Shown piece by piece: positions 12,679 to 57,894 of a DNA stretch of 64,000 bases. Position 1 is the first letter of the stretch. The number at the start of each line of letters is the position of its first letter. This stretch comes from a bacterium. GTDB taxonomy: Bacteria; Krumholzibacteriota; Krumholzibacteriia; G020349025. Under the pieces are notes generated by a model. That model was not told the DNA's origin. It saw only the letters and a list, made by a program, of their open reading frames with translations, and searched no databases. A program made the position numbers and the translations under genes. The DNA is taken from the NCBI GenBank assembly GCA_031362565.1, contig JANLSU010000106.1, positions 63,031 to 127,030 on the forward strand, in the 5' to 3' direction.

Positions 12679-12874
12679 CGACGACCTGCACCGGGGCCCT
12701 TGGCCGCACCCTCGACGTGTGGCCGGGAAACCGGCGGGTCGTTCGCGCCCCGACGCTAAATCCCTGCGACGCATGAACTGGGTCGAGCCACGCGTCGATG
12801 GCCGCCAGCAATCCCGGAATAGCGCATCGCACCTTCCGGGATTCGTGGTTGCGTCCCGCACAGGGAGTTCGCGA

Positions 12875-15800
12875 GTGTTGGATTTCTTGTCCCGCCGATG
12901 GTCGCTTTGGATCGTGGGTGCAGCCATCGTCCTGGCCGGACGGTCGGCCGGCGCCCAAGGCTTTTTGTCACTGCGCATCGAGACCGCACCGGGCGGCAAT
13001 GCACCGGATCTTGCGTCGACGACGCGCGTCGCGGGCGATTCGCTGCGGCTCTTCGCGGCGACTTACGATTTTCTGGGATTCTACGCCGGGCCGGCGGCCG
13101 TCGATTGGTCGATCATTCCCGGTGGCGCGACGCTCGACGCCACACAAGGGACGACAACGCTGGTGCAAACGAGCCTCACCGGCCAATTCCACGTCCAAGC
13201 TGTCATGGACGGCACGACGGCCGACACCGGCAACATCACGGTCGTACCCGGACCCCCCTCAGGCCTGGCGGCTTTCGCATCGCCGGCGTTCGGCGCGCCT
13301 GCCATCACGTCGCTGGCTCTCTCGGCCGATTCAAGCCTCGTGCTCTACACTGGCAGCTACGACAAATTCTCGAACTGGACGGGACCGATCGACGTCGCTT
13401 GGTCGCTCGATGCGCCGATCGCCGCCGTCACGCCGTCGCATGCAACGCTCACCGTGCTCGACCCGCGGCGCACGGGGAACGGCCACCTGTGGCTCGATGC
13501 GCCGTCGTTGCCGCGCCTCGATCTGCCACTCGCGGTGACCCACGGCCGGATTGCGTCACTGCTCGTCTCCACCACGCCGGGCGGTACGCCGCTCGCCGAC
13601 ACGACACTCGTCGCCGGCCAAACGCTGCATCTCGAGGCGCGCGCCGCCGACGCCGACGGCAACTCCGTGACGCCATTCGCCGGCGCCACTTGGTCGGCGA
13701 CCGGCACTGGACTCGCTCTCGGTGCCGTGAACGGCGTGCAAACGGACGCCCTCGCATCGCTTCCCGGCAGCGCGCGCATTGTGGCGACCGCCGGCGCCAT
13801 CCAAACGAGTACGGGGATCATCCGCATCACCGCCGGCATCCTCGCACGCTTGCGCGTGTCGCGCGCTCCGGACACGTATGTCGCTGTCGATCCGGCGACC
13901 GTCGACGCCGATCAAAATTTCGAATTGTTCGCACTCGGTCAAGATGCCGCCGGCCATTGGCTCGGACCGGTGAGCGCGACGTGGACGAGCACGGACGCCG
14001 CCGTGTTGCACTCGCCGACGACGACCGGGCCGAGTGCGGTCGTCGATTGTGCGCGCATCGGCACCGCCCGCCTGCGTCTGACGGGCGCTGGACTCGCCCC
14101 CGACAGTACCGGCGCCGTGCAAGTCACGCCGGGCCGGTTCGCGCGCCTGACCATCGAATCACTCGGCGACGGCACCGGCAGCGAGATGGGCGCCCTCGGC
14201 TTCTCGGCGGATTCCGTCATCGCCTTCCACGCCGTCGGACGCGACGCGGACGGCAATTTCGTCGGCGCACGCAATGCTCTGTGGTCGCTCACCGGTCCCA
14301 TCGGTTCGTTGTCCACGCCGCTGGGTCCGGACGTGGTACTCCTGGGCGAACATCCGGGCACCGCGCTTCTCACCGCCGTCGACGGCATCGAAACCGATGT
14401 TGCGGGCCCGATCACCGTCACCGCCGGCGCGCCGTATCGCCTGCGGGCCGAAGACAGTCTTGGCTTGGCGCTCGCGCCGCGCGCTCTCGCGCCGGGCGAA
14501 ACGGCGAGCGCGGTCGCGATGACCCTCGATCGCGACGGCAACCAGCTGACTGCGGCGCCGGTGACTTGGGGCTGGCTCGGCGATGCGCTGGCGCTCCTGC
14601 CGGGCAGCGCCGCGCCGCAATACAACTGGACCGCGGGCCGGGTCGGCCAAGGCCGGCTCGTGCTGGCAGCTCCCGGCCTGATGGCCGACACGAGTGCGAC
14701 GTTCACCGTCGTGGCGGGTTCACCCGCGAGGCTCGAAATGCGCGACGCATTGGGACTACCGGTGGGGGCGCGCACCTTGTCGTGCGATGCGCTTCTCGAA
14801 CTGCATGCATGGGCTCTCGATGGAAGTGGCAACGAGCTCGGACAGGTGCCCGTCACATGGAGCGTGCTCGGCACGGCGGGCAGCGCCACCGTAGCACCGC
14901 TTGCAGGTTCGGCGACGGTATTGCGCCCGGTCACTCCAGGTGTCGTCCGTGTTGCGGCACTGCATGGCAGCGGGGTCCAAGCGCAGTCCGGCGATCTGAC
15001 TCTCGTTCCCGGACAGATCACGCGCGTGACAATCGAGACCGCAGCCGACGGCAGCGGATCGCGCCTGGCGTCGCGCGGCCTCGCGGCCGGTGATCTGCTG
15101 CCGCTCTTCGCGGTCGGCCGCGACGGCCAGGGCAATTTCGTTGCGCCGGTGAATGCCAACTGGTTCGAGTCGGGCGGCATCGGCACCTTGAGCGTGACGC
15201 AAGGCACCGCCACGATTCTGCTCGCCGAGCACCGCGGCCGCGGCCGCGTGACGCTGACCGTGCCGCTCATCGATGGCGACGAGACCGGCATTCTCGACGT
15301 CACACCCGGACCGGTGGCGGCACTTGGCATCGAACGTTCGCCGGCCGGTCCGGCCGACGCGCTCGGCACGGCGACGGTGAGTGTCGATGATTCGCTGATG
15401 GCCTTCGCAGTGGTGCGGGACGTGTTCGGGAATTGGATTGCCACGGTGCCGGCATTCTGGAGTGTGACCGGCCCGGCGGGCGCGGCGCAGATTTCCAGCC
15501 CCGGCCCGGCAACCGCAACCGTGCTACGGCCGCAGCATCCGGCGCAAGTGCAACTCACCGCGACGTGGAACGGATTCGCGGCACTCTCCGGCCCGCTCGC
15601 CCTCGTCGTTGGACGCCTCGCCACGGTTGGCATCGAGACGGCGGCCGATGGCAGCGGCTTCGCGATCGGTAATCGCACCTTGGGCGCCGGTGAAGTGGTC
15701 GCGTTGTACGCCATCGGCCGTGACGCGCTCGGCAACTTGACCGGTGCGGTGACAGCGGCGTGGAGCGTCGTCGGCATCGGTGGAACGCTCGACACGGCGT

Positions 15801-18800
15801 GGCAGAGCGCGGCGCGTTTCACCGCCGACCGGCCCGGCCTGTGCCATGTGACGGCCGCCTACCCGGGGGTGGGTTTGGCGACGACCGGTGCATTGACGGT
15901 CACTGCCGGCACGCCCGCGTCACTCGTTCTCGAGCGGGCGCCCGGCGATCCATTCGACCCCTTCGACACCACCGCACTCGCGGCCGGCGATTCCGTCGAG
16001 GCCTACGCGGTGCTGCGCGATGGACTTGGGAACTGGGTGGGCAATGTCGTCGCAACGTGGAGTGTTCTCGGGAGTCCCACGAGCGCGATCTTGAATCCGA
16101 CCGCGGCGGGTGGCGTTGCGCTGCAGGCGCGCCATCCGGGAAGCGTGCGTTTGCAGGCGACGTGGAATGGCCGCGACGCGGTGAGCGGGACAATCGATCT
16201 CGGCGCCGGCGCGCCCGCCGGTACGTTTATGATGAGCTTGACGCCCAACACCCTACGGGCCGGTGGACCGTTGCCGGCGCTCGGCAACGGTGGCCCCGTC
16301 ACGGACGCATGGGGCAATGACGTCGCCGACGGCACGCGCATCGATGTGCGTTTGACGGGCGCCACGGGTCTCGCCGGCGAGGATCTCGATCCGGTGCGTG
16401 CCGGCGTGCAGCGCCCGACGAGCGCCGGGCACTTCGTCTTCACGCTCGTGCCGGGCGCCCTTGCGGGCCCGGCGACCGTCGATGCAACGGCGGGGACGGC
16501 GGCCGGCCGAGCGGCGATTGCCTTGTTGCCGCCGATCGGCATCGGCGTGCTGGCGGGATCGTTCACGCCGATCGAATGGTTGCGTGGCGCGCCGTTTGCA
16601 GCCCACTTGACGCTCGTGAATCCCGATGTGCTGGCGCTCGACCTCGCGACGGCAGAACTGCGGTTGGACGACGGCAACGGTGGCGCGATTCAAACCTCAC
16701 TCGCCGCGCCGGTCACGCTCCAGCCGGGCATGGCAACGGGTGTCGATTTTGTGTCGCTCGATACGCCCGGCGCGCTCCGCGCCGGACGTTACACGCCACG
16801 CTTGCACGTCACCGGCCAGGACCAGCTGGGGTCGCCGTTCGATCTCGAGATCGGCACCGCCGGTGCGACACTCGATCTGGTGGATGGCGCCGTGACCCAG
16901 GTGACCGGCCATGCGCCGCTCCGCCTGACGCAGGGAACGCCGGTGCACTTCACCGTCGATGTTCTGAATAGCGGCGATGTTGCCGTGCAGCTCGATGCGG
17001 CGCGTTCGCTCCTGCAGGGCGGCGCGTTCGCGGCGGCGCTGGCCCCCGGGAGTGCCACGACGCTCGCCCGCGGCACTGTCACCCGGCTCGATTTCGTCAC
17101 CACCATTTGGCCGCTTGGCGCGACGGTGGGGGATGTGCCGCTCGATCTCGAACTGCACGGCACCCAAACCGGCGGCGCCTTCGATGCGTCGGTGGCGAGC
17201 GGCACGGTGCGCGTCGATGCGACGGCGGCGTTGATCGCCGACAAGGGTGCACTGACGCCCGTCCTGGTGCCGCAAGGTGCGAGCCCGGCGCCGCGGATCA
17301 CGGTGCAGAACGCTGGTGGCAGTGCCGTGACCCTGAATACCAACACGCAAGTGCAAATCGCCGGCCGCGCCGGTGGTCTGGTGACACCGGTTCGCGTCGG
17401 ACCCGATTCCGCCGCGATCCTCGATTTCGCGCCAGTGGATCTCGGCGGCCTGCCGGCCGGACTGTACTCGGTGTGGTTGTCGGCACAGGGGACGCAGAAT
17501 GGCGCCGCGTTCGCGCAAGATGTCGCCTTGGCCGACAGCCTCACGCTGTTTGCGCCGGCGGCGCTCACCATCTTGGGGATTCAGCCGAGCCAGGCGACGG
17601 TCACGGCCGGGCAGACCGCGTCTTGGCTGCTGCGCGTCGTGCTGTCGAATAGCGGTGCGACAGCATACCGCATCGATGCAGCCGATGTGCACATCGTGTT
17701 GGGCGGCATCGACCGCACCGCGACCTACACGATGACGCACCAAAAACCCTTTACCAGCGCGTTGCCACCCGCAGCCCGGGATACGCTCGATTTCTTGGTG
17801 ACACAAACCGGCCCCGATGCTGGACTCGCGACTCTCGAAGCCGCGGTGCAGGCAACCGATCTCACCACCGGACTGCCCGTCGAGGCCAACACGTTCACGG
17901 CTGGAAAGGGCAGTCTCCGGGTCCAGAACCCGGCGATCGCCGCGGCGGGCGTGTTGACCCTGTCGCAGCCGGCCGTCGTCGCCGGCCAAACAGCGCCCGT
18001 GGAAGTGACGCTCACGGTGCGCAACGCCGGTGAAGCGATCCTCGATCTCGATCCAGCGTCGCTCGCGGCGAGCTTTGTCACCGCGCCGGCGATCGCGGTC
18101 GTGCCGGCGAGTTACACCGGCGGGCCCGGGCTCGCAGCCGGTGAATCGATGCTGCTGCGCTGGACCTTGGGCCCTTTCACCGCCGCGCCCGGCAGTCTGC
18201 AGTTGACCGCGACCCCGCAATTCGTGGAACGGAATCGCGCCGCGTTGTTGACCTGCAGCGCGAGCACCAACGTGCCGGTGCAAGGGCCGGCGGCGGTCGT
18301 TGTCAGCCAGGCCAATGCGCCGGCGAGCGTCACCGTGGCACAGGCGCAAGCTTGGACGGCGCGCTTCCAACTCACGAACTCCGGCGGCAGTAGCGTGACG
18401 GTCGCGACACCGCGCCTCGTGTTTGCGGCGCCGGGCGCCGCGACGACGTTCGGGGTCACGCCACCGCTCACCTTCGAAGACGGGCGGCCGTTGCAGCTCG
18501 CACCAGGTGCGCAGGGGACTCTCGCCTTCGTTATCAACCGAACCGATGCGACGGCGCGCCGGGTCACGATCGGCGTCGCGTGTGACGCCGTCGAAGAACT
18601 CTCGGGACGCGCGTTGACGATCGCCAACGGTGCGACCGCGACCGTGAGCGTGCAAGCGCCACCCGCCGTGCAGTTGGTGGATGCATCCCTCGCGCCGGCG
18701 CGCGCCGCGGTGGGCCAGGTCGTGGGGTTCACGCTCGATGCCCAGAATACCGGTGAGTCGCGCTTGGATCTCGATGCAACCCAGTCTTGGGCCCGGCTCG

Positions 18801-21800
18801 TGGATGGCACGACGCTGCATTCGTTGATGGCGCCGGCAGTGCTCCCAGGCGGCGGGACGGCGACGCTGCGCTTCGCTGCGGCGGCACTCGATGGGGCTCC
18901 GGGCGCCGGGGCGCTGCGCCTGCACCTTGCCGGCACCGAGAACGGCAATGCGTGGAGCGCCGATCTCTCGACCGGCGCCGTGCTGCGGCTCGATGCGGCC
19001 GCCCAACTCGAAATTACCGCCGTGCGCCCCTCCCGGCCACGCGTCACTCGCCGGCAAACTGTCGCTTGGACGGTGCGGGCGGCGGTGCGCAATCATGGCG
19101 GCGATGCGGTGCTGGATGCCGCAACGCTCGGATTCACGCTCGGCGCGGCGGACGTCGCGACTGGGTTCACGGTCACCGCTCCGGCCCACTTCGAATCCGG
19201 CACCACGCTCCTGGTTGCCGGTGCAGCTGACACCTTGCGCTTCGACGTGACGCGAACTCTGGACGCCATCGGTCTGGTCGCTCTGGACGCGACGCTCCAC
19301 GCCCACGATGCCAATAGCGGCACGCCGCTCGTGGTGACGAGCGTCGGTCAGGCGCGTGGCAGCGTGCAGATCGATGCCCCGGCAGAGCCGGTCATTGCCA
19401 CCCTGCAAGCGAGTCAAGCGCTCGTGAGTGCCGGTCAACGATCCGCGTGGCGCGTGCAAGTCACGGTGCGCAATGACGGCGGGTCGCCGTGGCGCGCCGA
19501 CTGGACACGCGCGGCGCTCGTGCTCGGTGCGGCGCCCGATGACAGCATTGCCTGTGGAGCACCGGCCGCACCCCAACTGTTGGATGCCGGCGAGTCCGAA
19601 GGCGCGGTCTTCACGATTCACCGCACCGGCGCCGAACTCGGCGCCGTCGGACTCGTTGCAAGCCTGCCAGGTGTCCAGGAATCGGACGGCGCGGCGATTG
19701 CCGCTCTCCCGAATGCGCCGGTCACCATCGTCGTGCAGCGTCCTGCCGCGGCCAGGCTCGAAACCGCGACGGCGCACACCCAGCGCCCCGGCACTGCCAA
19801 CACCGGTCAAACCGTCCGCTTGGACATCACGGTTCGGAATAGCGGCGAAGCCGATCTGCGGCGTGTCGCCGTACAGGCGCACGCGGATGGTGCGACCCCG
19901 GCGGACAGCCTTCTCGTTGCGGCTGTACCGGGCGGTGGAAGTGTCACGTTGCACTCCCAAGTGCGCTTACGTGACGATGCCGGACCGGCGGCGATTCAAT
20001 TCACGGTCCTGGAAGCGTACGATGCCAACGATTCCTTGACGACGGCCGCCTTCGGTGCGACCACCGCGGCCCACCTCGACTTGCGCGCCGAAACGCCCGG
20101 CAGCTTGGCGCTGACCCTGGTTCCGAGTCAGGGGCGGGTGTCCGCCGGACAGGCGCGCGAGTGGTCGCTGGCCGTGCAGGTGGAAAATGTCGGCGAAGAA
20201 CCGCTGGTGCTGCGCGCGCCGCGCCCGAGCGATATCGAGTTCCAGCGCAGCAACGTCCCGCAAAGCGACTATGTCGTGTTGGCGCCCGCCGCTTTCGACG
20301 AAGGCGGCCTGACGCTCGCCGGCGCCGGCCAAGGGACGCTGCGCTATCGGATCACCCGCACCGGTGATGGCGGCGGCAGCATTGCGATCACGGCCACGGC
20401 GAGTGCGCTGCACGCCAACGATGCCACCGCCCCCGACATGGCAGCCACCGCTGCCGCGACGATCGCCGTCGATGCAGAACCCAGTTTGCGAATTCTCTCG
20501 ACCGATACCCGGACCTGGCGCCGGGACCGCGGTTTCGACGACGACCGCGTCGATGCCGGGCAGGCCTTCGCGGTGCGCGTCGTCGTGGAAAATACCGGCG
20601 GCACCCAACTGGACAGCATCGGCGTCGATGTCGAGTCGCAGCGCGGCAATTCGCATCTCGATGGCCGGCGCTGGCTCGACACGCTCGCACCGGGACAGCG
20701 CGGCGAATTGGAGTTCGCGGTCGTCGGCGGCACTTGGTTGTCGCAGCCCGGCCTGCCGGAAGCTTTCACGGCGCACATCGCCGCCGCCCAGGATCTGAAC
20801 ACGGGCATCTCGGTTCTGCCCGGCGCGGCCGTCGACGCCACGACTTTCGCGTATATCGAGACACCCGCACAGGTCGCGCTCACGGCCTGGATCGACGCTC
20901 CCGATGGCGCTCGCGACGGCGTTCTCTCGGCCGCCCAAGAGTTCATTCTCGCGGCGCGGCTCGACAACGAGGGCAGCGCGGATTTCTCGGCGTCCGGGCG
21001 TGTGGCGCTCGGGTTGCCGGCCGGATATGCCATCGTCGATGGCGATCCAGAGCAATTTGCCGACGCCGGCCAAGTGATCCGGTGGACGTTGCAGGCCGGA
21101 GCGGCGGCGCACGCGTTCAGCGATACCTTGGTCATTGCGCTGGCCGCCGTGCCGCTCGACGAGAATCGTGGCACCCCAGCGATCGTGCGGGTTGGCACGG
21201 CGACGGTCGCCGTCGCGGTGCGCGCCACCGGTGATCTGGCCGCCCTGCTGACGCGTGGCGGTGCGGCGGCGGGTGGCTCGATCTTCGTTTCAACGGGTCA
21301 GACGCTCGACCTCGATGTTGTCGTCCGCGGCGATGCCGACTTGATCGGCCGCGAAGCGGATCTGGTGTTGCCGGCCGGCTGGTCGCCGGCACCGGGGAGT
21401 CCGCCGAAACTCGATCTGCCACCGGGCGCCGAAGCGCGTACGACCGCAGCCGTGCAAGTCGGTCATGCGCCAGGCATGGCCCAAGTCATCCTGCATGCAA
21501 CCGCCGTCGACCGGAACGACGAATCGCCGCGCGCCGCGCTGGATACCCTGCAATTGCAAGTCGTTCGCGCCGCACGGCTGGCGGTGGATGCGGCAATCGT
21601 CGCGCCCGACGAGGCGCGCGATGGGCGGCTCCTGCCGGGCCAAGCGTTTCAAGTCCGCGCCTGGGTGCGCAACCAGGGTGACGCGGCGGTCGTCGCGGCG
21701 CCGGGGAATACGTCCGGCGGCACGCTCCGCCTCATCGACGTGCCCGCGGGGTACGGCGTGCAGGCCGCCGAACAGCCGTACGTCCTGACCGGCCGTGAAG

Positions 21801-22738
21801 CGAGCATCACGTGGAATCTCACCGCGCCTCCGGTCGTGCGGCCGGGTGCGGAGACGATGCGGATCGTTTTCGCCGCTCTGCCGTTCGACGCCAACGCCAT
21901 GCAGGCCGTCGGGCTCGATCCGGATTCGACGATCGCCCGTTGCGTGGTTTCGGTCGCCAACGACGCGGTTGCCGTCGACGCTACCGCCGAGCCAGCCACC
22001 GTGGTGGCGCCGGGCGAGCGCGACGTCACGCTCTTGCACCTGCTGATCACCAATCAGGCTGAAGCCGCGGTGCGCATCGACGCCGTCGGTGTCGCACCCC
22101 TTGCCGACGGCGTCATTCTGCCCGATGCATTCGCCCACTACGTGCTGACGCGCGACGACGATGCGGCGATCCGCGTCGAAGCGCTGCCGTCCGGCAGCTC
22201 CCCGGTCTGGATCGATTTCGGCGCCGCGGGCAATGCGGCGATTCTCGCGCCGGGCGCCACGGCACGTTGGACGTTGCGCGCCGACATCGCGACATCGGCC
22301 GCGGCGCGCACCGTCAGTGCGGCATTGCGGACCAACGCCGCCGGTGCAGTGCTCGTACGGGCCAGTGAATCGAGCTCGGGCGCCGCGGTGCCGGTGCACG
22401 CCGATGCACGCGCCACGCTGGCGTCGGCAGCGGTGCGGGTTTTGGGCGCCGCGCTCGCCGCATACAACGCGCCGAATCCGTTTCACGCCGAACGCGAACC
22501 GACCACCATTCACTACCAAGTGGACGGCGCGAGTGATGTCACGATCCGCATTCAAACCCTGCAAGGCGCCCTCGTGTGGGAAACGCACCGGCACGAGGCT
22601 GCCGTTGGGACGGCGCTCCGCGGCGTCGAATGGGACGGCCGGAACGGCACCGGACAGCCGGTACGGAATGGTGTGTATGTGTGCTCCGTGCAAGTCGGCA
22701 CGCGGGCGACGCGGTTCAAAATCGCGGTGACCCGCTAG
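12875..22738 (+). CDS. Giant (~3290 aa) Ig-repeat surface protein/adhesin with C-terminal FlgD-like domain
   Basis: AGGGAG SD before GTG 12875; signal peptide (AGA-Q); ~11-12 D-x-x-GN...W repeats, ~15 V-x-N-x-G CARDB-like repeats; YNAPNPF...WDGRNGTGQPVRNGVY...KIAVTR. Confidence 0.85.
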   Translation: MLDFLSRRWSLWIVGAAIVLAGRSAGAQGFLSLRIETAPGGNAPDLASTTRVAGDSLRLFAATYDFLGFYAGPAAVDWSIIPGGATLDATQGTTTLVQTSLTGQFHVQAVMDGTTADTGNITVVPGPPSGLAAFASPAFGAPAITSLALSADSSLVLYTGSYDKFSNWTGPIDVAWSLDAPIAAVTPSHATLTVLDPRRTGNGHLWLDAPSLPRLDLPLAVTHGRIASLLVSTTPGGTPLADTTLVAGQTLHLEARAADADGNSVTPFAGATWSATGTGLALGAVNGVQTDALASLPGSARIVATAGAIQTSTGIIRITAGILARLRVSRAPDTYVAVDPATVDADQNFELFALGQDAAGHWLGPVSATWTSTDAAVLHSPTTTGPSAVVDCARIGTARLRLTGAGLAPDSTGAVQVTPGRFARLTIESLGDGTGSEMGALGFSADSVIAFHAVGRDADGNFVGARNALWSLTGPIGSLSTPLGPDVVLLGEHPGTALLTAVDGIETDVAGPITVTAGAPYRLRAEDSLGLALAPRALAPGETASAVAMTLDRDGNQLTAAPVTWGWLGDALALLPGSAAPQYNWTAGRVGQGRLVLAAPGLMADTSATFTVVAGSPARLEMRDALGLPVGARTLSCDALLELHAWALDGSGNELGQVPVTWSVLGTAGSATVAPLAGSATVLRPVTPGVVRVAALHGSGVQAQSGDLTLVPGQITRVTIETAADGSGSRLASRGLAAGDLLPLFAVGRDGQGNFVAPVNANWFESGGIGTLSVTQGTATILLAEHRGRGRVTLTVPLIDGDETGILDVTPGPVAALGIERSPAGPADALGTATVSVDDSLMAFAVVRDVFGNWIATVPAFWSVTGPAGAAQISSPGPATATVLRPQHPAQVQLTATWNGFAALSGPLALVVGRLATVGIETAADGSGFAIGNRTLGAGEVVALYAIGRDALGNLTGAVTAAWSVVGIGGTLDTAWQSAARFTADRPGLCHVTAAYPGVGLATTGALTVTAGTPASLVLERAPGDPFDPFDTTALAAGDSVEAYAVLRDGLGNWVGNVVATWSVLGSPTSAILNPTAAGGVALQARHPGSVRLQATWNGRDAVSGTIDLGAGAPAGTFMMSLTPNTLRAGGPLPALGNGGPVTDAWGNDVADGTRIDVRLTGATGLAGEDLDPVRAGVQRPTSAGHFVFTLVPGALAGPATVDATAGTAAGRAAIALLPPIGIGVLAGSFTPIEWLRGAPFAAHLTLVNPDVLALDLATAELRLDDGNGGAIQTSLAAPVTLQPGMATGVDFVSLDTPGALRAGRYTPRLHVTGQDQLGSPFDLEIGTAGATLDLVDGAVTQVTGHAPLRLTQGTPVHFTVDVLNSGDVAVQLDAARSLLQGGAFAAALAPGSATTLARGTVTRLDFVTTIWPLGATVGDVPLDLELHGTQTGGAFDASVASGTVRVDATAALIADKGALTPVLVPQGASPAPRITVQNAGGSAVTLNTNTQVQIAGRAGGLVTPVRVGPDSAAILDFAPVDLGGLPAGLYSVWLSAQGTQNGAAFAQDVALADSLTLFAPAALTILGIQPSQATVTAGQTASWLLRVVLSNSGATAYRIDAADVHIVLGGIDRTATYTMTHQKPFTSALPPAARDTLDFLVTQTGPDAGLATLEAAVQATDLTTGLPVEANTFTAGKGSLRVQNPAIAAAGVLTLSQPAVVAGQTAPVEVTLTVRNAGEAILDLDPASLAASFVTAPAIAVVPASYTGGPGLAAGESMLLRWTLGPFTAAPGSLQLTATPQFVERNRAALLTCSASTNVPVQGPAAVVVSQANAPASVTVAQAQAWTARFQLTNSGGSSVTVATPRLVFAAPGAATTFGVTPPLTFEDGRPLQLAPGAQGTLAFVINRTDATARRVTIGVACDAVEELSGRALTIANGATATVSVQAPPAVQLVDASLAPARAAVGQVVGFTLDAQNTGESRLDLDATQSWARLVDGTTLHSLMAPAVLPGGGTATLRFAAAALDGAPGAGALRLHLAGTENGNAWSADLSTGAVLRLDAAAQLEITAVRPSRPRVTRRQTVAWTVRAAVRNHGGDAVLDAATLGFTLGAADVATGFTVTAPAHFESGTTLLVAGAADTLRFDVTRTLDAIGLVALDATLHAHDANSGTPLVVTSVGQARGSVQIDAPAEPVIATLQASQALVSAGQRSAWRVQVTVRNDGGSPWRADWTRAALVLGAAPDDSIACGAPAAPQLLDAGESEGAVFTIHRTGAELGAVGLVASLPGVQESDGAAIAALPNAPVTIVVQRPAAARLETATAHTQRPGTANTGQTVRLDITVRNSGEADLRRVAVQAHADGATPADSLLVAAVPGGGSVTLHSQVRLRDDAGPAAIQFTVLEAYDANDSLTTAAFGATTAAHLDLRAETPGSLALTLVPSQGRVSAGQAREWSLAVQVENVGEEPLVLRAPRPSDIEFQRSNVPQSDYVVLAPAAFDEGGLTLAGAGQGTLRYRITRTGDGGGSIAITATASALHANDATAPDMAATAAATIAVDAEPSLRILSTDTRTWRRDRGFDDDRVDAGQAFAVRVVVENTGGTQLDSIGVDVESQRGNSHLDGRRWLDTLAPGQRGELEFAVVGGTWLSQPGLPEAFTAHIAAAQDLNTGISVLPGAAVDATTFAYIETPAQVALTAWIDAPDGARDGVLSAAQEFILAARLDNEGSADFSASGRVALGLPAGYAIVDGDPEQFADAGQVIRWTLQAGAAAHAFSDTLVIALAAVPLDENRGTPAIVRVGTATVAVAVRATGDLAALLTRGGAAAGGSIFVSTGQTLDLDVVVRGDADLIGREADLVLPAGWSPAPGSPPKLDLPPGAEARTTAAVQVGHAPGMAQVILHATAVDRNDESPRAALDTLQLQVVRAARLAVDAAIVAPDEARDGRLLPGQAFQVRAWVRNQGDAAVVAAPGNTSGGTLRLIDVPAGYGVQAAEQPYVLTGREASITWNLTAPPVVRPGAETMRIVFAALPFDANAMQAVGLDPDSTIARCVVSVANDAVAVDATAEPATVVAPGERDVTLLHLLITNQAEAAVRIDAVGVAPLADGVILPDAFAHYVLTRDDDAAIRVEALPSGSSPVWIDFGAAGNAAILAPGATARWTLRADIATSAAARTVSAALRTNAAGAVLVRASESSSGAAVPVHADARATLASAAVRVLGAALAAYNAPNPFHAEREPTTIHYQVDGASDVTIRIQTLQGALVWETHRHEAAVGTALRGVEWDGRNGTGQPVRNGVYVCSVQVGTRATRFKIAVTR

Positions 22739-22742
22739 GAGG

Positions 22743-24659
22743 ATGATGATGCTGGCACGGAAGTCCTGGATCCTACTCGCGTGCATGCTCGCGACGACCG
22801 CGCATGCCGGCGGCACCGCCAATGGCGGGACCGAATCGAATCTGAGCTTGGGAGCCACGAGCCGCGGGATCGGACTCGGCGGCGCGTTCCTGGCGAGCGT
22901 CGACGACGCGAGCGCCGTGTACTGGAATCCGGCCAAGCTGGCGAGCCTCGAACGCGGCAGCGTCATTCTGACTCACATGCCGATCGGCTTCGGTGACGCG
23001 ACTCTGAGTTTTGCCGGCGTCGCGTATCCGACCCTCGGTGCCGGCACGTTTGCTTTCGGGTTCCAGCACCTCTCCACCGATGGCATTCAGGCCTACGACG
23101 CCACGAGTCAGGCGCTCGGCAGCCTCGAATATTCGGAGACCGCGCTCTATGCCGGTTATGCCCACGCGATCGCCGCCGGCACGCTGGGTGCGCTGCAAGT
23201 CGGCGCGACCGCGAAGACGTTCACTCAAAGTCTAACGCCTTGGTCGAGCACCGGCGCCGGACTCGACTTGGGTTTGGCGTGCACGCCGCGCCGCTTTCCG
23301 GATCTCGGCTTGGCGTTCGTGTGGCGGGATGCGATCGCCCCGCATGTGCGGCTCGATCAAACCTCGGATGCCGCACCCGCGACATTGCAATTCGCCGGCA
23401 CCTGGCGGACCCGCGCCACGCGTACGACAACGCTGGCGCTGAACGCCGGTGTCGATCACACCGGCCCGCTCGGCTGGTCGCCACGCCTCGGACTCGAAGC
23501 CGGTTATGGTTCGCATCTGCAGTTGCGGCTCGGTTCGTCCCGCAACGGCGTCGCCTTCGGCCTCGGCGTGACCTGGCAGAATGCGGCGCTCGACTATGCA
23601 TTCCTGGGCCACGAGTCGGCGGCCACCCAGCCGGTCTCGGTGCGCACGGAGTGGGGCATGCGGCTCGAAAACCGCCTCGCGGCGCGCACGACGGCGCGCG
23701 AGGCGGCGCTGCGGGCGCAATTGCAAGACCGGCTCGAGGCCCGCCTCGATGCGGCGCAGGCGGCATTCGATCGTGGGGACTATGCGGCAGCGGTGGACGA
23801 GTGGAAGGTCGTGGCCGGGTTGGATCCCGCCGACGAACGGGCCGAGCGTGGCATTCAAGCCGCGGGTGCCAAGCTGGCGGAAACCCAGGCGCGCGATCTC
23901 GCCGATCGCGAACAGGTGGCGGCGCACACCGCCCAGTTCGAACTCGGGCTGCGCTACTACGGCCAGAGCGAGTATGCGTTGGCGCGCGACGTGTGGGCGC
24001 AACTGCGCCAGCAGGACCCGGCCAACACCGAAGTGCAACGCTATCTGGACAAGAACGAGAAGGCGTTCCGCGACCAGCTCCGGGCCCAATCCGACGAAGC
24101 GCACCGGCTCGAAATCGCCGGCGACTGGGTCGACGCACTCGCGGCCTGGACCCGCATTCGGGCCACCGACAATCAACGCGCCGACGCCGAAGCAGCGCTC
24201 GAACGCTGTCGCATGGGGCTCGAACGGCAAAATGCCCGCCGCTGGGATGCCAGCCGCGGCTCGAATGCGAACGTCAACGCCGGTACCAACGCCATCGCCA
24301 AGGCGGCGCCGGTATCGAAAGCCGCCGCCGCACCGTTCCGCGACGCCGTCGCGGCGTATTCGAGCGGTGAGATCAGCCGCGCCGTGACGTTGTTGCGCGA
24401 GGTTCGCCGGTTGGATCCCGCCAATCAGGAAGCCGAGCGCTTGTTGGCGAAAGCCGAGCGCCAACTGCTGCCCTTGGGTGACGAGGATCGCGCCCGGGTG
24501 CGCGAGATGTACCTGCGCGGGATGAGTTTCTTCACCGCCAATCAATTCGACAAGGCGATCGAAGCCTGGTCCAAGATTCTCGATGTCGATCCGGGCAATA
24601 CGAGCGTGTACCAGAACATCCGCGAAGCCCGCGCGCGCCTGCGTGCCCTGCAGCCTTGA
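22743..24659 (+). CDS. PorV-like beta-barrel fused to C-terminal coiled coil and TPR repeats
   Basis: AGGAGG SD; signal peptide; LGATSRGIGLGGAFLASVDDASAVYWNPA; LDYAF; several TPRs (e.g. YLRGMSFFTANQFDKAIEAWSKILDVDPGN). Confidence 0.8.
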   Translation: MMMLARKSWILLACMLATTAHAGGTANGGTESNLSLGATSRGIGLGGAFLASVDDASAVYWNPAKLASLERGSVILTHMPIGFGDATLSFAGVAYPTLGAGTFAFGFQHLSTDGIQAYDATSQALGSLEYSETALYAGYAHAIAAGTLGALQVGATAKTFTQSLTPWSSTGAGLDLGLACTPRRFPDLGLAFVWRDAIAPHVRLDQTSDAAPATLQFAGTWRTRATRTTTLALNAGVDHTGPLGWSPRLGLEAGYGSHLQLRLGSSRNGVAFGLGVTWQNAALDYAFLGHESAATQPVSVRTEWGMRLENRLAARTTAREAALRAQLQDRLEARLDAAQAAFDRGDYAAAVDEWKVVAGLDPADERAERGIQAAGAKLAETQARDLADREQVAAHTAQFELGLRYYGQSEYALARDVWAQLRQQDPANTEVQRYLDKNEKAFRDQLRAQSDEAHRLEIAGDWVDALAAWTRIRATDNQRADAEAALERCRMGLERQNARRWDASRGSNANVNAGTNAIAKAAPVSKAAAAPFRDAVAAYSSGEISRAVTLLREVRRLDPANQEAERLLAKAERQLLPLGDEDRARVREMYLRGMSFFTANQFDKAIEAWSKILDVDPGNTSVYQNIREARARLRALQP

Positions 24660-24685
24660 TCCCGCCCTTCCTTTGGAGCATCGCT

Positions 24686-27600
24686 ATGAGCAGTCGCAAC
24701 GGACGGACCGAGCGCCTCGAGATCGCCGCCGACGAGCGCCATCTCTCGGACGTTCGCGACTTCATCGATCGCACCTGTGCCGCGTGTGGCTTTGCGCCGC
24801 GGGCGATCGCCAATATCCGGCTGGCGGTCGACGAGGCCTGCACCAATGTCATCAAGCACGCCTACCCGAATGGCGGCCCCGGTGCGGCAAGCGCCAGGCT
24901 CGGCATCGCGGCCGGCGCGCACCGCGGCTGGCTCGAGGTGCGCATCGTCGATCAAGGCAAGCCGTTCGAAGGCCAGATCGACCTGCCCCAGCTTGGCGAA
25001 CTGGTGGAAGCGCGACGCAAGGGCGGCTTCGGCATGTTCCTGATGCACCGGCTCATGGACGAAGTGCGCTACGAAACGACCCCGGCAGGCAACGAATGGA
25101 TTCTGCGCAAGCGCCTGCCGCAACCGCCTTCGACCTTTGCGCGGCGCATGCGCCTGCGTTACGCGCTGCAGGCGAGCCTCGGGATTGTCGCCATCAGCGT
25201 CTTGGCGGTCACGCCACTCTGGCTGCGCGAAGGGCGCCAGCGTGAGCGCGCCGACTTGCAGGCACTGCGGGCGCTGGCTTTCGGTCTCGCCGAAGCGGCG
25301 CGGCCGGCACTCGTACAGCGCGCCGAACTCACCCCCGAGCAAACGCATTTGTTCGAGGCGGTACTGGCGCTCGGGCGCGAGGAGCCACGCATCCTGGCGG
25401 TCGATGTCGTGGATCGCGCCGGAACGATTTGGGCGGCGGATCGCGCTGCCGCCACCTTCACCCACTTCATCGAACCGGCCGGCTTGACGGCGGCCGATGC
25501 CGACGGGTTCCGGCAGGCGCGCGAGCGCGTCGACGGGCACGCGGTCCTGCATCTCGCAGTGCCGGTGCGGATGGGCAACGGCGCGACCGAAGTCGGGACG
25601 GTGCATCTCTCGGTGCGCCGCGACGAGATCGAGGCCGAAGTGCGCGCCGCGCGCGCCCGCTTGGCAAGTGGGGCACTGGCCGTGGATGCGCTGGCCCTGC
25701 TGCTCGTCGGCGCCGCCCTCACGGCTTTCCTGCGGCCCTTGCAGCGGCTCGTCGACGGAGTTCGCGGCATGGCGTCCGAAGGCGCTGATTTGGCGGAAGA
25801 CGGCCCCGGCGAGATCGGTTCCATCGCGGCGGCCTTCAACGACATGAATGCCCGTTACAAGGCCGCCCGCGAAACCGCCGCCGACCACGAACGCTTGCAG
25901 CAAGACCTGCAGGTCGCGCGCGAGATTCAGACGGCGATTCTGCCGCAGCACGTGCCCGACATTGCGGGCTATGAGATTGGCCGCTTGTACCGGCCGGCCG
26001 GCGAAGTCGGCGGCGACTACTACGATTTCTTGGATGTAGGCGACGGGCTGACCGGCGTCGTCGTGGCGGATGTCGCCGGCAAGGGCGTGCCGGGGTCGCT
26101 CGTCATGGGCATGTTGCGGACGGCTCTGCGGCTCGAAACCCGGCGCAACGCCAGCGCCGGCGACGTGCTGTCGCGTCTGCATCAATTCCTCGCCGCCGAC
26201 ATGCGCAAGGGAATGTTCGTGACGATGTTGTACGTGGTGCTCGACACGCGGCACCGGGTCGTGAGCTACGCTTCGGCCGGCCACACGCCCATGGTGCTGT
26301 ATCGCGCCGGCAAGGACGAAACCTTTTGTTTGTCGCCCAAGGGACTGCCGGTCGGCCTCGCCGGATCGGACACCGCAATGTTCGAAAAGGAACTCGACGT
26401 GGAGCGTCTGCGGCTGCGGACCGGTGATCTTTTGTTGCTCTACACCGACGGCATCACCGAGGCCACCAATGCAGCGGGCGAGGCGTATGGCGAAGAGCGG
26501 CTGGTGGCGGCCGTCAAACGCTTCGGGCGCGAATCGGCGGACGATTTCGTTCGGGCGCTCGAGGCGGACCTCGCCGAGTTCACTGGCGGTATGGCGCTCA
26601 CTGATGATCTGACGCTGGTCGCGATCAAGGAGAAGCAGGGAGCGCCGGAAGTCGGCGGCGAAACGTTTCGCAAGCTCGTTGACGCCATCGACGCCAAAGG
26701 TGTGCCGGTGGCGGATGCGTGCCGGCGGTTTGGCGTATCACCCTCGACCTACTATCGTTTGAAGCGCGTCGCGGGCGATGACAGCGAACCGCAACAGTTG
26801 TCGATGGAAAAGGGTGCCGCACTTCGCCGTCTGGCCATGGCGCGCCGCGACTTGGGTGCGCGCGAGATCGCCGCTTTGCTGCGCACCCCGGAGTGGGGCA
26901 GCATCGACCTTGCACCGACGCGCATCCACGTCGAATTGCGCCGCATGGGAATCGACCTGCCGGTGAGTGCAGTGCCGGCGATGCCGGCGCCGGGTTCAGC
27001 TGCGGCGCTGCCGATGGCGGATGACACCGCAACCGAAGCTCCAAACAGCAACGGCGCCGACAGCAGCGCGGTTGCGATGTCGGAAACATGGCTCGATGCA
27101 GGCGGATTGCGCGGTCTCCTTGCAGCGCCGGCCGCCGGTCCGGGCGCCGCGCTGTTGCAACTCGAGGGTTGTATCGACAGTACGTCATGCGATGCGCTGG
27201 AGAGCCTGCTCGCGACGGCAACCGGTGCCGGTCACGCTCTGGTCGTCGATCTGGCCGAAGTGGCGTACGTGAGTAGTCGAGGCTGGGGCCTGTTGGCGGC
27301 CGCGAGTGCGCGCGCCGTGGGTGGCTTGGCGCTCGCCGAGATGCGTTCCGATGTCTTCGACGTCTATCGAATGCTGGGTTTCGAGTCGATTGTACCGTCC
27401 GCGGCCGACCGCGATGCGGCGCGGGCGCGTCTGTTGCCGGCGGCTCGCAAGGCGGCTTCGAATGCATCGCCCGGCGCCGCATCCAAGTCGAAGGCCGCAC
27501 CCACGACGGCGATCGTGCCGTGCAAGGTGGCGTTCGATGCCGCCGCCCCGGACGATGCCGGTGCGTCGCTGCGCTGCCGCGTTGGGCACGCGGGGCGCGA

Positions 27601-28489
27601 TGGGGAAGTGGCGGTGATCGCCCTCGAAGGCATCCTCGACACGGTGAGCGCGCAATTGTGTGCCCGGATGTTCTCCGAACTCGCGCTCCGCGAACGCACC
27701 GCGGTGCTGATCGACCTGTCGTGCATCGAGTTCGTGAGCAGTGCCGGTTGGGGATGTCTGACGGCGTTCGCAGCCGAGCGCGCCCGCATCGGCAGCGCCG
27801 TGCGCTTGTTCGGGATGAGCGCCTCGGTGGCGCGCATCTATGAATTGCTGCACTTGGCAGCGGTGCTGCCTTCCGACGACATCCTGGCGGACGCGTTGGT
27901 GGCCTGCGGCGCCACCGAAGTTGCAGCTCCGGCGCGCGTCGACGCGACCACGGTGGCGCCCACCGCGTCACCAAGCCAACCGGTTGGTGCGGCGCACGGT
28001 GCTAGTGCGGTGGGCATCGAAATCGAAATCGGCGCTTTGCAGGCGCGACTCGAACCCTATGGAACCAGTGGCCGGGCGCATCGCCTGGCGCTCCGCGGCA
28101 CGTGGCGTGGTGACGCGGGAGCGTCGTTCGAGGCCTGGCTCGGCGCACATGCGACGCCGGTCGACCTGCTGCTGGTCGACGGCCGGGGCCTCGAAAGCGT
28201 CGACGCAGAAGCCTGGGATGTGTTGCGCCGGCACGCCGAGAGTCTTGCGACGCACGGCGGCCAAGTGTGCGTGGTGGCGAGCGCCGCAACGGCGCCCGCA
28301 GTCGACGCCGGCCTGCACGTCCACCGTTCGGTGGTGGAGGCGCTACGCACCCAGCAGAGCCGCCCGGTACGGCTGGAGACCGTTCGCGTCGAAGACAGCG
28401 ATTTCAGCAAGGACGCGGAGATCCGGCGTGAGGGCTGGAACGCTTATGTCGACCTGCTCCGGCAGGCATTCCGAGAGGACGCCCTGTGA
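24686..28489 (+). CDS. Membrane partner-switching protein: RsbW-type HATPase-2TM-HAMP-SpoIIE(PP2C)-HTH-3xSTAS
   Basis: LAVDEACTNVIKHAY, DQG, GGFGMFLM; VGGDYYDF, VADVAGKG, YTDGITEA, DDLT; VADACRRFGVSPSTYYR; DLAEVAYVSSRGWG and DLSCIEFVSSAGWG. Confidence 0.9.
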   Translation: MSSRNGRTERLEIAADERHLSDVRDFIDRTCAACGFAPRAIANIRLAVDEACTNVIKHAYPNGGPGAASARLGIAAGAHRGWLEVRIVDQGKPFEGQIDLPQLGELVEARRKGGFGMFLMHRLMDEVRYETTPAGNEWILRKRLPQPPSTFARRMRLRYALQASLGIVAISVLAVTPLWLREGRQRERADLQALRALAFGLAEAARPALVQRAELTPEQTHLFEAVLALGREEPRILAVDVVDRAGTIWAADRAAATFTHFIEPAGLTAADADGFRQARERVDGHAVLHLAVPVRMGNGATEVGTVHLSVRRDEIEAEVRAARARLASGALAVDALALLLVGAALTAFLRPLQRLVDGVRGMASEGADLAEDGPGEIGSIAAAFNDMNARYKAARETAADHERLQQDLQVAREIQTAILPQHVPDIAGYEIGRLYRPAGEVGGDYYDFLDVGDGLTGVVVADVAGKGVPGSLVMGMLRTALRLETRRNASAGDVLSRLHQFLAADMRKGMFVTMLYVVLDTRHRVVSYASAGHTPMVLYRAGKDETFCLSPKGLPVGLAGSDTAMFEKELDVERLRLRTGDLLLLYTDGITEATNAAGEAYGEERLVAAVKRFGRESADDFVRALEADLAEFTGGMALTDDLTLVAIKEKQGAPEVGGETFRKLVDAIDAKGVPVADACRRFGVSPSTYYRLKRVAGDDSEPQQLSMEKGAALRRLAMARRDLGAREIAALLRTPEWGSIDLAPTRIHVELRRMGIDLPVSAVPAMPAPGSAAALPMADDTATEAPNSNGADSSAVAMSETWLDAGGLRGLLAAPAAGPGAALLQLEGCIDSTSCDALESLLATATGAGHALVVDLAEVAYVSSRGWGLLAAASARAVGGLALAEMRSDVFDVYRMLGFESIVPSAADRDAARARLLPAARKAASNASPGAASKSKAAPTTAIVPCKVAFDAAAPDDAGASLRCRVGHAGRDGEVAVIALEGILDTVSAQLCARMFSELALRERTAVLIDLSCIEFVSSAGWGCLTAFAAERARIGSAVRLFGMSASVARIYELLHLAAVLPSDDILADALVACGATEVAAPARVDATTVAPTASPSQPVGAAHGASAVGIEIEIGALQARLEPYGTSGRAHRLALRGTWRGDAGASFEAWLGAHATPVDLLLVDGRGLESVDAEAWDVLRRHAESLATHGGQVCVVASAATAPAVDAGLHVHRSVVEALRTQQSRPVRLETVRVEDSDFSKDAEIRREGWNAYVDLLRQAFREDAL

Positions 28490-29226
28490 GGCGCATTGCA
28501 ATTGCGGCTGCCAAGGGCGGCACCGGTAAAACCACCACTGCCGTCGCACTCGCGCACGGCCTCGCGCTGGCCGGCGAGCGCGTGTTGCTCATCGATTGCG
28601 ATCCACGCCGCGACTCGAGCTTGCATTTCGGCCTGTCGCCCGAACCCGGACTCGCAGCCTGGCTGCGGGGCCGTCCGGCGCGCGTCATGGAAGTGCGTGC
28701 CGGCCTCTGCGTCCTGGATAGCGGTGGCGAGGCGCTTGCCGATCTCGAACTGACACTCGGCACCGATCCGCTCGAGGAACTGCGGCTTGGGCGCGCCCTG
28801 GACACGCTGCAGGATGTCGATTATGTGGTGCTCGATTGTCCGGCCGGCGTCGGACCCATCGCGCGCGCGGCGCTCCGCGCCAGCCACGAGGTCCTCGTGC
28901 CACTCTGCGCCGACTATTTGAGTTTGGCGAGCGCCGGCCTGCTGCTCGAGCGCCTGGTCCAGATGCGGGGCACGAACGGCGCCGCGCCACGTCTTCTGGG
29001 ACTCCTGCCGACATTCTATGACGCCGACGCTCCGAGCGCCCTGAACGTCGATTCCGTGCTTGCGGAACTGCACGCCGGCCGTGTCCTCCAGACGCGCATC
29101 GCGCTTTGCGATGGGCTCCGGGCGGCACCGGCACGCAGAGGCACGATCTTCGATTGCGAACCGCTATCGCGCGCGGCGTTGGACTACGTCTCGTTGCTCG
29201 ACGAGGTGCGGGCTGCCGCCGCCTGA
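28486..29226 (+). CDS. Orphan ParA/Soj family ATPase
   Basis: Deviant Walker A KGGTGKTTT, LLIDCDP, DYVVLDCPA; GTGA overlap with the upstream gene. Confidence 0.88.
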   Translation: MRRIAIAAAKGGTGKTTTAVALAHGLALAGERVLLIDCDPRRDSSLHFGLSPEPGLAAWLRGRPARVMEVRAGLCVLDSGGEALADLELTLGTDPLEELRLGRALDTLQDVDYVVLDCPAGVGPIARAALRASHEVLVPLCADYLSLASAGLLLERLVQMRGTNGAAPRLLGLLPTFYDADAPSALNVDSVLAELHAGRVLQTRIALCDGLRAAPARRGTIFDCEPLSRAALDYVSLLDEVRAAAA

Positions 29227-29328
29227 CCTGTCACTTCTGGAGCCATCGGGTGTCCACACGGTCGCGGCGGCGGCCGCATGGTTCTGCGTGGTGTATCGCT
29301 ACGGAGTGTTCCGCGCCGCCCAAGGTCG

Positions 29329-29345
29329 CTGGACTAAACCTTGCT
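29329..29345 (+). promoter_or_regulatory. Candidate sigma54 promoter for the STAS gene
   Basis: CTGGACTAAACCTTGCT (GG-N10-GC with TGG and TTGCT); implied +1 near 29356, just before SD AAGGAGGT. Confidence 0.45.
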
Positions 29346-29377
29346 TGTAGAGCCCTCGTGGCTCCAAGGAGGTGGGC

Positions 29378-29785
29378 ATGCGGTCCCTCGAGTACAGTGT
29401 CGAGACCGTGGGTGCGAAGAAGACGATCGCGATCTTGTCGCTCGACGGTTATGTCGACAGCGCGACCTCGCTGAACATGGACGAGGCTATCGACTCGATC
29501 CTGCAGCAGCGGGTCTATCAGATCGTGGTCGATTTGACCAAGGTGAGCTATATCAGCTCGGCCGGATGGGGTGTGTTCATCAGCAAGATCAAGGACATCC
29601 GTGAGAACAACGGTGGCCTGAAGATCGCGGGGATGCGTCCCGACGTCCGCGACGTCTTCGACTTGCTCGGCTTTGGCCACATCATCGAAGCCCACGATAC
29701 GGTGCAGGACGCGGTCAACGCGTTCGAAACGCAAAGCGGGCGCGACAAGCGCGAGGTCGTCACCGGCGGCCGTCGCACCGTCTGA
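29378..29785 (+). CDS. STAS domain anti-sigma factor antagonist
   Basis: LSLDGYVDS, VVDLTKVSYISSAGWG, VRDVFDLLGF; strong SD. Confidence 0.92.
   Translation: MRSLEYSVETVGAKKTIAILSLDGYVDSATSLNMDEAIDSILQQRVYQIVVDLTKVSYISSAGWGVFISKIKDIRENNGGLKIAGMRPDVRDVFDLLGFGHIIEAHDTVQDAVNAFETQSGRDKREVVTGGRRTV

Positions 29786-53165: not shown

Positions 53166-55223
<2,058 letters not shown>

Positions 55224-56383: not shown

Positions 56384-57894
<1,511 letters not shown>

Follow-up and report, generated by a model that had tools for sequence, protein, structure and literature searches.

PorV is the carrier of type A substrates in the translocon of the T9SS (type IX secretion system) of Flavobacterium johnsoniae, where its loops bind the C-terminal domain (CTD) of the cargo inside SprA (PMC10994853, as far as its available text goes). 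In the PG1035-PorP-PorE arrangement a cargo has a cognate barrel and PorE supplies a periplasmic tetratricopeptide repeat (TPR) domain (PMC9143113 and PMC12773672, in their accessible parts). In Porphyromonas gingivalis the PorA CTD binds PorY in the periplasm and thereby switches on PorXY-SigP (PMC12152298, from the available portion). Here we describe a 64,000-nucleotide stretch of a Krumholzibacteriota genome (assembly GCA_031362565.1, contig JANLSU010000106.1, positions 63,031 to 127,030 of the forward strand; hereafter the window) in which a giant gene is followed by genes for a PorV-family barrel with a TPR tail (PorV-TPR), a fused partner-switching sensor, a ParA-type ATPase and a stand-alone STAS protein. 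This cluster is a real unit that is conserved across loci labelled as several phyla, and its invariant core consists of PorV-TPR, the sensor and STAS, usually behind a cargo gene. We lean towards reading it as a conserved trans-envelope module, in which a PorV-family barrel with a periplasmic TPR arm of ~330 residues is translationally coupled to a bifunctional inner-membrane sensor and acts together with a STAS substrate.

The window barrel shares its fold with the T9SS PorV proteins (6h3i, 8gl6), stands next to a CTD-bearing cargo gene and belongs to a genome that also encodes SprA and PorU. Unlike these PorV proteins, it carries the additional TPR arm (638 residues in total against 345 and 367), is one of at least eight PorV/PorQ-family members of its genome and is tied to a signalling protein. 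As in the PorA-PorY-PorX-SigP pathway, the state of a T9SS cargo or carrier would be reported to an inner-membrane sensor (PMC12152298, available portion). However, PorA-PorY uses a two-component histidine kinase and an extracytoplasmic function (ECF) sigma factor, whereas the locus described here encodes a PP2C/RsbW/STAS switch and the barrel-borne TPR arm is the candidate messenger. SprB-SprF and PG1035-PorP-PorE resemble it in combining a giant adhesin-type cargo, an outer-membrane barrel of its own and a periplasmic TPR domain. In contrast, their barrels belong to the PorP family, their cargo carries type B CTDs, the TPR domain resides on a separate protein and there is no phospho-switch.

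The signalling half of the locus can be compared with systems outside type IX secretion. The SiaABCD and HsbR-HsbA-HsbD partner switches of Pseudomonas reportedly drive a diguanylate cyclase. They have in common with our cluster a membrane HAMP-PP2C sensor, and a GGDEF gene follows STAS in five related loci of Ignavibacteria type. The SiaA model is the top NCBIfam match of the window sensor, but at 66 bits against a cut-off of 700, and neither a SiaA equivalog score nor a cyclase output was found in the window. Unlike SiaABCD, kinase, phosphatase, helix-turn-helix (HTH) and substrate domains are joined in one chain that has an outer-membrane partner. Rv1364c of Mycobacterium tuberculosis likewise holds a whole partner switch in one polypeptide, reportedly in the order sensor-phosphatase-kinase-antagonist; it is cytoplasmic with a PAS input, whereas the window sensor is membrane-bound with a Cache input, places the kinase first and adds an HTH. 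FecA-FecR-FecI signalling relies on an outer-membrane barrel whose periplasmic extension communicates with a regulator in the inner membrane. The barrel-to-inner-membrane logic is alike, but the window cluster has no TonB-dependent transducer, FecR or ECF sigma factor and the families are unrelated. A literature search, with most subscription journals outside its coverage, returned no paper on PorV and partner switching, on type IX secretion and an anti-sigma factor antagonist, on the present arrangement among the papers listed, or on type IX secretion in Krumholzibacteriota.

Reading the open reading frames (ORFs) of the window gave five cluster genes, all on the + strand, with the following domains.

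12875..22738, + strand: giant secreted protein, 3287 residues, signal-peptide-like N-terminus; presumed T9SS-type cargo
22457..22735, + strand: sorting-type CTD of the giant protein, residues ~3195-3287; FlgD_ig and PorU-model matches
22743..24659, + strand: PorV-TPR protein, 638 residues; PorV/PorQ family followed by TPR repeats
22842..23654, + strand: PorV/PorQ-family beta-barrel of PorV-TPR, residues ~34-304; NF033709 match, AlphaFold2 model, Foldseek
23664..24650, + strand: all-helical TPR-like tail of PorV-TPR, residues ~308-636; TPR matches, AlphaFold2 model; presumed periplasmic
24656 or 24686..28489, + strand: fused partner-switching sensor; 1277 residues from TTG 24656, with ATG 24686 the probable start
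24722..25111, + strand: RsbW-type serine kinase domain, sensor residues 23-152; HATPase_c_2
25226..25654, + strand: single-Cache/PDC extracytoplasmic domain, sensor residues 191-333; flanked by two transmembrane (TM) helices
25727..25846, + strand: HAMP domain, sensor residues 358-397; Pfam
26042..26629, + strand: SpoIIE/PP2C serine phosphatase domain, sensor residues 463-658; E 2.4e-48
26660..26965, + strand: HTH module (homeodomain-like, transposase-type), sensor residues ~669-770; below the Pfam cut-off here
27155..27871, + strand: two fused STAS domains, sensor residues 834-909 and 983-1072; an SS-x-GWG motif in each
Sensor residues ~1142-1240, + strand: degenerate third STAS, following the two clear ones
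28486..29226, + strand: ParA/MinD-type ATPase (BcsQ-like), overlapping the sensor by 4 nucleotides; accessory
29372 or 29378..29785, + strand: stand-alone STAS protein of the anti-sigma-antagonist type; best-conserved member, 41-54% identity

The most plausible start of the giant gene is GTG 12875, which has GGGAG ahead of it, lies behind 412 nucleotides of non-coding DNA and opens a signal-peptide-like N-terminus. With the ATG starts at 24686 and 29378, the spacings given in the initial annotation were reproduced (a 4-nucleotide gap, a 26-nucleotide gap, a 4-nucleotide overlap and a 151-nucleotide gap). Its five co-oriented genes are a real arrangement, but their shared orientation is uninformative: no confirmed gene of the window lies on the - strand, and all 24 flanking ORFs with Pfam matches are on the + strand (34 + strand and one - strand ORF were submitted). 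What goes beyond chance is how closely the genes are spaced and that other genomes conserve them.

Conservation was analyzed by searching the sensor in 40 related genomes and comparing up to 20 kb around each full-length match with the window proteins. Full-length orthologues were present in 18 of the 40 (E <= 7.7e-153), namely in all genomes of the families f3 (5/5), f4 (3/3), f7 (2/2) and f8 (4/4) and in four of six in f6. No orthologue was found in the six relatives from the window's own family or in f2 and f5. PorV-TPR was encoded directly upstream of the sensor in 18/18 loci, with the barrel stop and the sensor start abutting or overlapping by 4 nucleotides in most of them. The giant-gene orthologue lay directly upstream of PorV-TPR in 16, the remaining two being cut by a contig end. 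A free STAS gene accompanied all 18, in two copies in 14 loci and in one copy in the four f6 loci. Searched on its own, full-length PorV-TPR (E <= 2.2e-61) occurred in exactly the same 18 genomes and was absent from the other 22.

The same order was found beyond the class. An alignment-based scan with one genome per species yielded 80 PorV-family loci, and the succession of CTD-bearing cargo gene, PorV-TPR, sensor, sometimes ParA, and STAS recurred in five loci labelled Ignavibacteria or Ignavibacteriales, one labelled Calditrichaceae and L051, with overlapping reading frames there as well. Among the 80 loci, the sensor accompanied all ten barrels with an aligned TPR tail and only two of the 70 others (L039 and L044), both of which carry TPR tails called by Pfam. 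A metagenome scan with the sensor alignment added 17 full-length loci. PorV-TPR was located upstream in 17/17, as judged by tblastn in 12, by NCBIfam in three (653-679-residue proteins with PorV-family and TPR matches) and by part of the tail in two loci at contig ends. Linkage of the sensor to PorV-TPR, whose absence would have refuted the proposal of the initial annotation, was present in every locus examined.

Simpler relatives of the pair exist in parallel. Contig C63 of the same genome encodes a protein of at least 1723 residues with a FlgD_ig C-terminus, a 690-residue PorV+TPR protein and a 569-residue TM-HAMP-PP2C protein that lacks kinase, HTH and STAS. In related genomes, at least 21 of 28 weaker PorV+tail matches, among the matches listed, were closely followed, in the same orientation, by a paralogue of the sensor; three of the other seven were barrels in short frames (446-486 residues). 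Members of the cluster also occur rearranged or fused. L044:10001-14133, labelled Candidatus Limnocylindria, encodes beside PorV+TPR a permuted sensor of the order TM-sCache_3_2-HAMP-SpoIIE with the kinase at the C-terminus, and in L051 a cytoplasmic TPR protein is fused to the sensor.

That the second gene encodes an outer-membrane barrel with a TPR tail, as first annotated, was borne out by fold, TPR matches and helix content. Residues 34-298 match the PorV/PorQ-family model NF033709 with 87.7 bits alone and, when the in-frame matches of the genome search are added up, with 91.3 bits, the cut-off being 90; the relatives in L131 and L135 reach 113.6 and 109.6 bits. The PorV equivalog NF033710 scores 20.1 bits against a cut-off of 250, so that the protein is not an orthologue of PorV itself, and a canonical PorU-PorV pair is encoded elsewhere in the genome on contig C85. 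The AlphaFold2 model of PorV-TPR, built on a 26-sequence alignment, has a mean pLDDT of 86.7 and comprises a barrel at residues 72-304 followed by 13 helices at residues 308-636. PorV chains were the top two Foldseek matches of the barrel (8gl6_F, E 4.7e-10, and 6h3i_F; TM-score on target 0.63-0.65), ahead of FadL and TodX. It is thus a FadL-like barrel that is most similar to solved PorV. The tail is conserved through the C-terminus in the 26 sequences, and barrel topology places it, presumably, in the periplasm. A different neighbourhood of such a barrel was seen in L048:9518-18200 (labelled Elusimicrobia), where a 129-residue FlgD_ig protein precedes a 538-residue PorV-like barrel with a TPR tail, followed by a 611-residue FliF-C + FliG-M/C + TPR protein and a 1601-residue TPR protein, with a sigma-54 response regulator upstream.

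The giant protein had been called an Ig adhesin with a FlgD-type C-terminal domain. The first label is borne out only in part: CARDB/DUF7507 matches at residues ~2300-2370 and a DUF11 repeat cover small parts of the protein, and most of its length is without family match or repeats: self-BLAST revealed no internal repeats at E <= 1e-3, and phmmer gave no match in the PDB. The FlgD_ig match in the last ~90 residues was seen as described, yet at 22 bits it stays under the Pfam cut-off of 27. The C-terminus also aligns with positions 999-1081 of the PorU model (E 2.9e-8) and with an M6-like model (E 3.2e-6), and no further CTD-type family matched at E <= 0.01 in the family model search. The genome encodes SprA (448.9 bits summed) and three PorU sortases over the cut-off, and ~35 other ORFs share the CTD-like C-terminal match. 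Of the features of a T9SS type A cargo, a signal-peptide-like N-terminus and a genome with translocon and sortase were found, whereas the C-terminal domain is matched as described above, below the FlgD_ig cut-off. The GldM model had no match in the genome but none in any control genome either and is uninformative. The three PorU paralogues are full-length and lie on contigs C85 and C131; on C85 a pair of them, separated by 1.2 kb, sits next to the canonical PorV. SprA, the PorU proteins and the many CTD-like C-termini make a cargo/carrier pair plausible. Such pairs are common in these phyla: of the 77 PorV-family genes that have room upstream, 24 have a CTD-bearing gene as their direct upstream neighbour. 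Judged from sequence, a giant protein with a dedicated carrier barrel is a plausible and reasonable reading.

The third gene had been described as a kinase/phosphatase sensor with a ~145-residue outer domain. Both enzymes and the domain are present, but an HTH and two to three STAS domains had gone unnoticed. In order, the protein comprises the RsbW-type kinase, a TM helix, an outer domain of ~143 residues, a second TM helix, HAMP, SpoIIE/PP2C, an HTH-like module and two STAS domains with a degenerate third. The kinase (HATPase_c_2, E 3.8e-26) has RsbW (6m36) as its PDB relative, and its residues E60, N64, G123, G124 and G126 are invariant in 26 sequences, as are D454, D472, D598, D650 and D651 of the PP2C domain. 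By these invariant catalytic-type residues, both enzymes look active. PDB relatives of the sensor by sequence were RssB, Rv1364c (3ke6), the 'putative serine phosphatase' 6k4e, RsbW and RsfB. HTH_23 scores 21.1 bits in the window protein, under the Pfam cut-off, but exceeds the cut-offs in orthologues, and the orthologue in L014 has three STAS stretches. The PP2C, RsbW-type kinase and STAS (E 2.1e-19) with a conserved serine that mark partner switching were hence found. The motif SS-x-GWG occurs in both the free and the fused STAS domains, as YISSAGWG in the free one, and its conserved serine we take to be the equivalent of the phosphorylated serine of SpoIIAA. The outer domain was modelled with a pLDDT of 93.5 and matched in Foldseek the sensor domains of DctB, WalK/YycG, KinD, DcuS and CitA, identifying the modelled fold as a single Cache/PDC domain; Pfam calls sCache_3_2 in the L044 relative (E 1.2e-11). 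In most of the matched proteins, including DctB, DcuS and CitA, this fold binds small ligands, and the copy in WalK reportedly engages the accessory proteins YycH and YycI.

We analyzed the proposed contact between tail and sensor by complex prediction. The tail (residues 300-638) and the Cache domain (residues 189-336) were paired with a 26-row alignment each in three runs alongside three controls. The pair scored 0.59 (runs 0.60, 0.59 and 0.56) and the best control 0.00; the runs agreed in at least 57% of contacts, and partner pLDDT was at least 82. Of 157 solved complexes 116 reach the mark applied, as do 2 of 215 mismatched pairs, but only 18 of those 157 complexes, and both passing mismatches, do so at 0.60 or under. 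The prediction weakly supports a contact of the TPR tail with the Cache domain. A mirror-tree comparison was set aside as evidence: it pointed the same way, in that Cache distances tracked those of the barrel (r 0.91) and of the tail (0.89) better than those of PP2C in the same chain (0.68), but it is confounded by rate and relatedness.

Cargo-carrier pairing together with a trans-envelope link to the sensor is the best reading of these data and is partly supported. Several observations weigh against it. Against the PorV-family model the window protein scores right around the cut-off, and it falls far short of the PorV equivalog. In L048, PorV+TPR is paired with a FliF/FliG-like protein, a different inner-membrane partner, rather than with this sensor, and the tail is therefore not specific to one partner. 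A complex score of 0.59 falls in a range where a pass is wrong more often than not, except for a guess that was already likely, which we hold this one to have been in view of the strict co-occurrence of tail and sensor. Across 26 sequences the Cache domain has a single invariant residue, a variability that fits co-evolution with a partner and equally fits varied small ligands. The mirror-tree is discounted because the kinase tracks the tail equally (0.91), fast-evolving parts intercorrelate and the taxa are related. In L137 FolD and RNase Y precede the barrel-sensor pair and no cargo gene adjoins it, for which reason we count only barrel-TPR, sensor and STAS as the invariant core. Finally, the whole neighbourhood is collinear within the class, with a PPDK or CBM48 protein upstream and an aminotransferase (57-62% identity) downstream, so that synteny within the class overstates functional linkage.

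This collinearity, housekeeping flanks included, could mean that the adjacency is inherited gene order without shared function. We regard this as very improbable, since loci labelled as other phyla keep the core order between different neighbours (aconitase, FolD, the GGDEF/Wza set), the paralogous pair family repeats it, and fusions join its members. A regulatory relationship is a more serious alternative. Here signalling would run inside-out or be purely regulatory: the Cache domain would sense a small molecule and the switch would control expression of adhesin and barrel, via the HTH, or their deployment, the neighbours being co-regulated without contact. Several findings suit this explanation: the outer domain has the Cache/PDC fold that small-ligand sensors (DctB, DcuS and CitA among them) typically show, the HTH is conserved in the sensor, 412 nucleotides of non-coding DNA precede the cluster and the support from complex prediction is weak. 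Yet abutting or overlapping frames and a co-occurrence of tail and sensor across phyla and in paralogues exceed what co-regulation usually entails, and in the loci examined the sensor was never found with a tail-less PorV. We therefore consider it unlikely.

We give a similarly low probability to the idea that the cargo CTD, and not the TPR arm, is the ligand of the Cache domain, either in the periplasm or after cleavage, while the arm serves only to tether the barrel to the secretion apparatus or to the cell wall. PorA, whose CTD binds PorY in the periplasm and activates PorXY-SigP, is a precedent (PMC12152298, available portion). In most loci a CTD-bearing gene precedes the barrel-sensor pair, and the sensor domains closest in structure to the outer domain bind ligands or partners. 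The strict link, however, is that of the TPR tail with the sensor (10/10 versus 2/70) and not of cargo with sensor: in L137 the pair persists with no cargo gene beside it, and 11 of the 24 CTD-preceded PorV-family genes have no sensor within 3 kb downstream, nine of them with that stretch present.

Under the trans-envelope reading that we prefer, the giant protein would cross the outer membrane via SprA/PorU/PorV-type machinery, with its CTD held by the dedicated PorV-like barrel. The TPR arm of the barrel would then reach the Cache domain of the sensor, and the state of barrel or cargo would pass through HAMP to shift the balance of PP2C versus RsbW-type kinase within one polypeptide, which would determine how far the fused and free STAS domains are phosphorylated on their conserved serine. 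Unphosphorylated STAS would engage an output that depends on the lineage, presumably a GGDEF cyclase in Ignavibacteria-type loci, ParA and a TPR protein in most Krumholzibacteriia and possibly the HTH of the sensor too. The direction of signalling, the export role and the 'surface contact' of the initial annotation are parts that we infer.

The output had initially been put down to a sigma-factor switch positioned by ParA, and neither part found support. The cluster encodes no sigma factor, and the best match of SigB/F/G-type sigma models in the genome scores 130 bits against a cut-off of 234. The ATPase does belong to the ParA/MinD type, with a deviant Walker A motif (KGGTGKT) at residues 10-16, matches to AAA_31 (E 2.9e-24) and CbiA, and a BcsQ-like model that covers its full length below the cut-off. 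It is accessory rather than part of the core: ParA occurs in 14 of the 18 related loci, in two of the seven Ignavibacteria/Ignavibacteriales, Calditrichaceae and L051 loci and in one of the 17 metagenome loci. The four related loci without ParA are those of f6, whose sensors also lack the STAS tail. No ParB gene was found among the annotated neighbours of the cluster.

GGDEF cyclase genes directly after STAS in five Ignavibacteria-type loci (L037, L040, L041, L043 and L137) point to a non-sigma output; the window cluster has none. In L041:14761-20982, STAS is followed by GGDEF, a Wza-like exporter (Poly_export + SLBB), a Wzz/GNVR protein, a TPR protein and a ParA-fold ATPase, and the same size pattern follows STAS in L037, L040, L043 and L137. 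The TPR protein of L041 is related to the cytoplasmic TPR protein of Krumholzibacteriia. It is possible that this GGDEF/Wza/Wzz set is a cyclic di-GMP (c-di-GMP)/exopolysaccharide output of the switch. Elsewhere, the genes after STAS are housekeeping (aconitase) or unrelated. The window cluster itself is reduced, lacking a cytoplasmic TPR protein of ~380 residues, a ~90-residue protein and the second STAS, all of which are present in 14 related loci; these three genes sit between ParA and the last STAS (L014:16409-18701 compared with window 29227-29371). For the cytoplasmic TPR protein, only generic TPR matches were obtained elsewhere in the window's own genome (best E 6.5e-10). Most Krumholzibacteriia encode this protein separately, and relatives that match it over the full length occur in Ignavibacteria loci (E 8.5e-31 and 7e-19).

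The following features flank the cluster.

12463..12874, + strand: candidate promoter/operator region, 412 nucleotides, non-coding, 5' of the giant gene; the DNA is read directly and its role is putative
29942..32143, + strand: 733-residue membrane protein with TM helices at both ends and a weak VWA_2 match; membership uncertain
32175..33830, + strand: Lamin-tail-domain protein, linked to the cluster within the class only; membership uncertain

Both downstream genes travel with the cluster within the class only, and the 29942..32143 protein was not found in the Ignavibacteria, Calditrichaceae or L051 loci. It was considered as a counterpart of the DUF4175 protein encoded after STAS in the Calditrichaceae locus and rejected for lack of similarity (E 0.96). 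At a window G+C content of ~68%, simple scans of 12000-31999 were uninformative: no sigma-70-like promoter site was returned, and five terminator-like sites were found versus 12.0 expected, none of them in the gaps between the five genes. Farther upstream, an ORF at 5908..6819 has a weakly PorV/FadL-like N-terminus (E 1.3e-7; weak Toluene_X and UPF0164 matches) and sits between the long ORFs 4193..5911 and 6695..8371, neither with a family match; window 4193-8371 may be another barrel-centred set. Window 53133-57929, with a G+C content of 0.61 below that of the rest of the window, encodes a PrkA kinase, a DUF444 protein and a 459-residue ORF without a Pfam match at E <= 1e-4.

How type IX bacteria learn of surface events is barely known, PorA-PorY being the sole worked case that we found (PMC12152298, available portion), and the module would be a second, architecturally different solution to surface sensing in these bacteria. 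It joins T9SS carrier barrels to partner-switching phospho-relays, which we did not find connected in print, in loci labelled as several little-studied environmental phyla, and it gathers a whole partner switch (kinase, phosphatase, substrates and HTH) in one membrane protein. In its most far-reaching form, which we put forward tentatively and hold to be possible rather than probable, a carrier barrel of the T9SS would have become a signal transducer: its arm would report to the Cache domain that the giant protein is loaded, anchored or under load, and the switch would set STAS phosphorylation to control c-di-GMP/exopolysaccharide, ParA-dependent placement or transcription. Krumholzibacteriota, Ignavibacteria and Calditrichota would share this system, with the simpler paralogous version of barrel-TPR and HAMP-PP2C running in parallel. 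The module offers testable pairs, namely the TPR tail with the Cache domain and kinase and phosphatase with STAS. It also suggests that dedicated carriers, each for its own cargo, are among the many unexplained PorV/PorQ paralogues of these genomes, and the arrangement as a whole points to an undescribed mode of signalling across the cell envelope.

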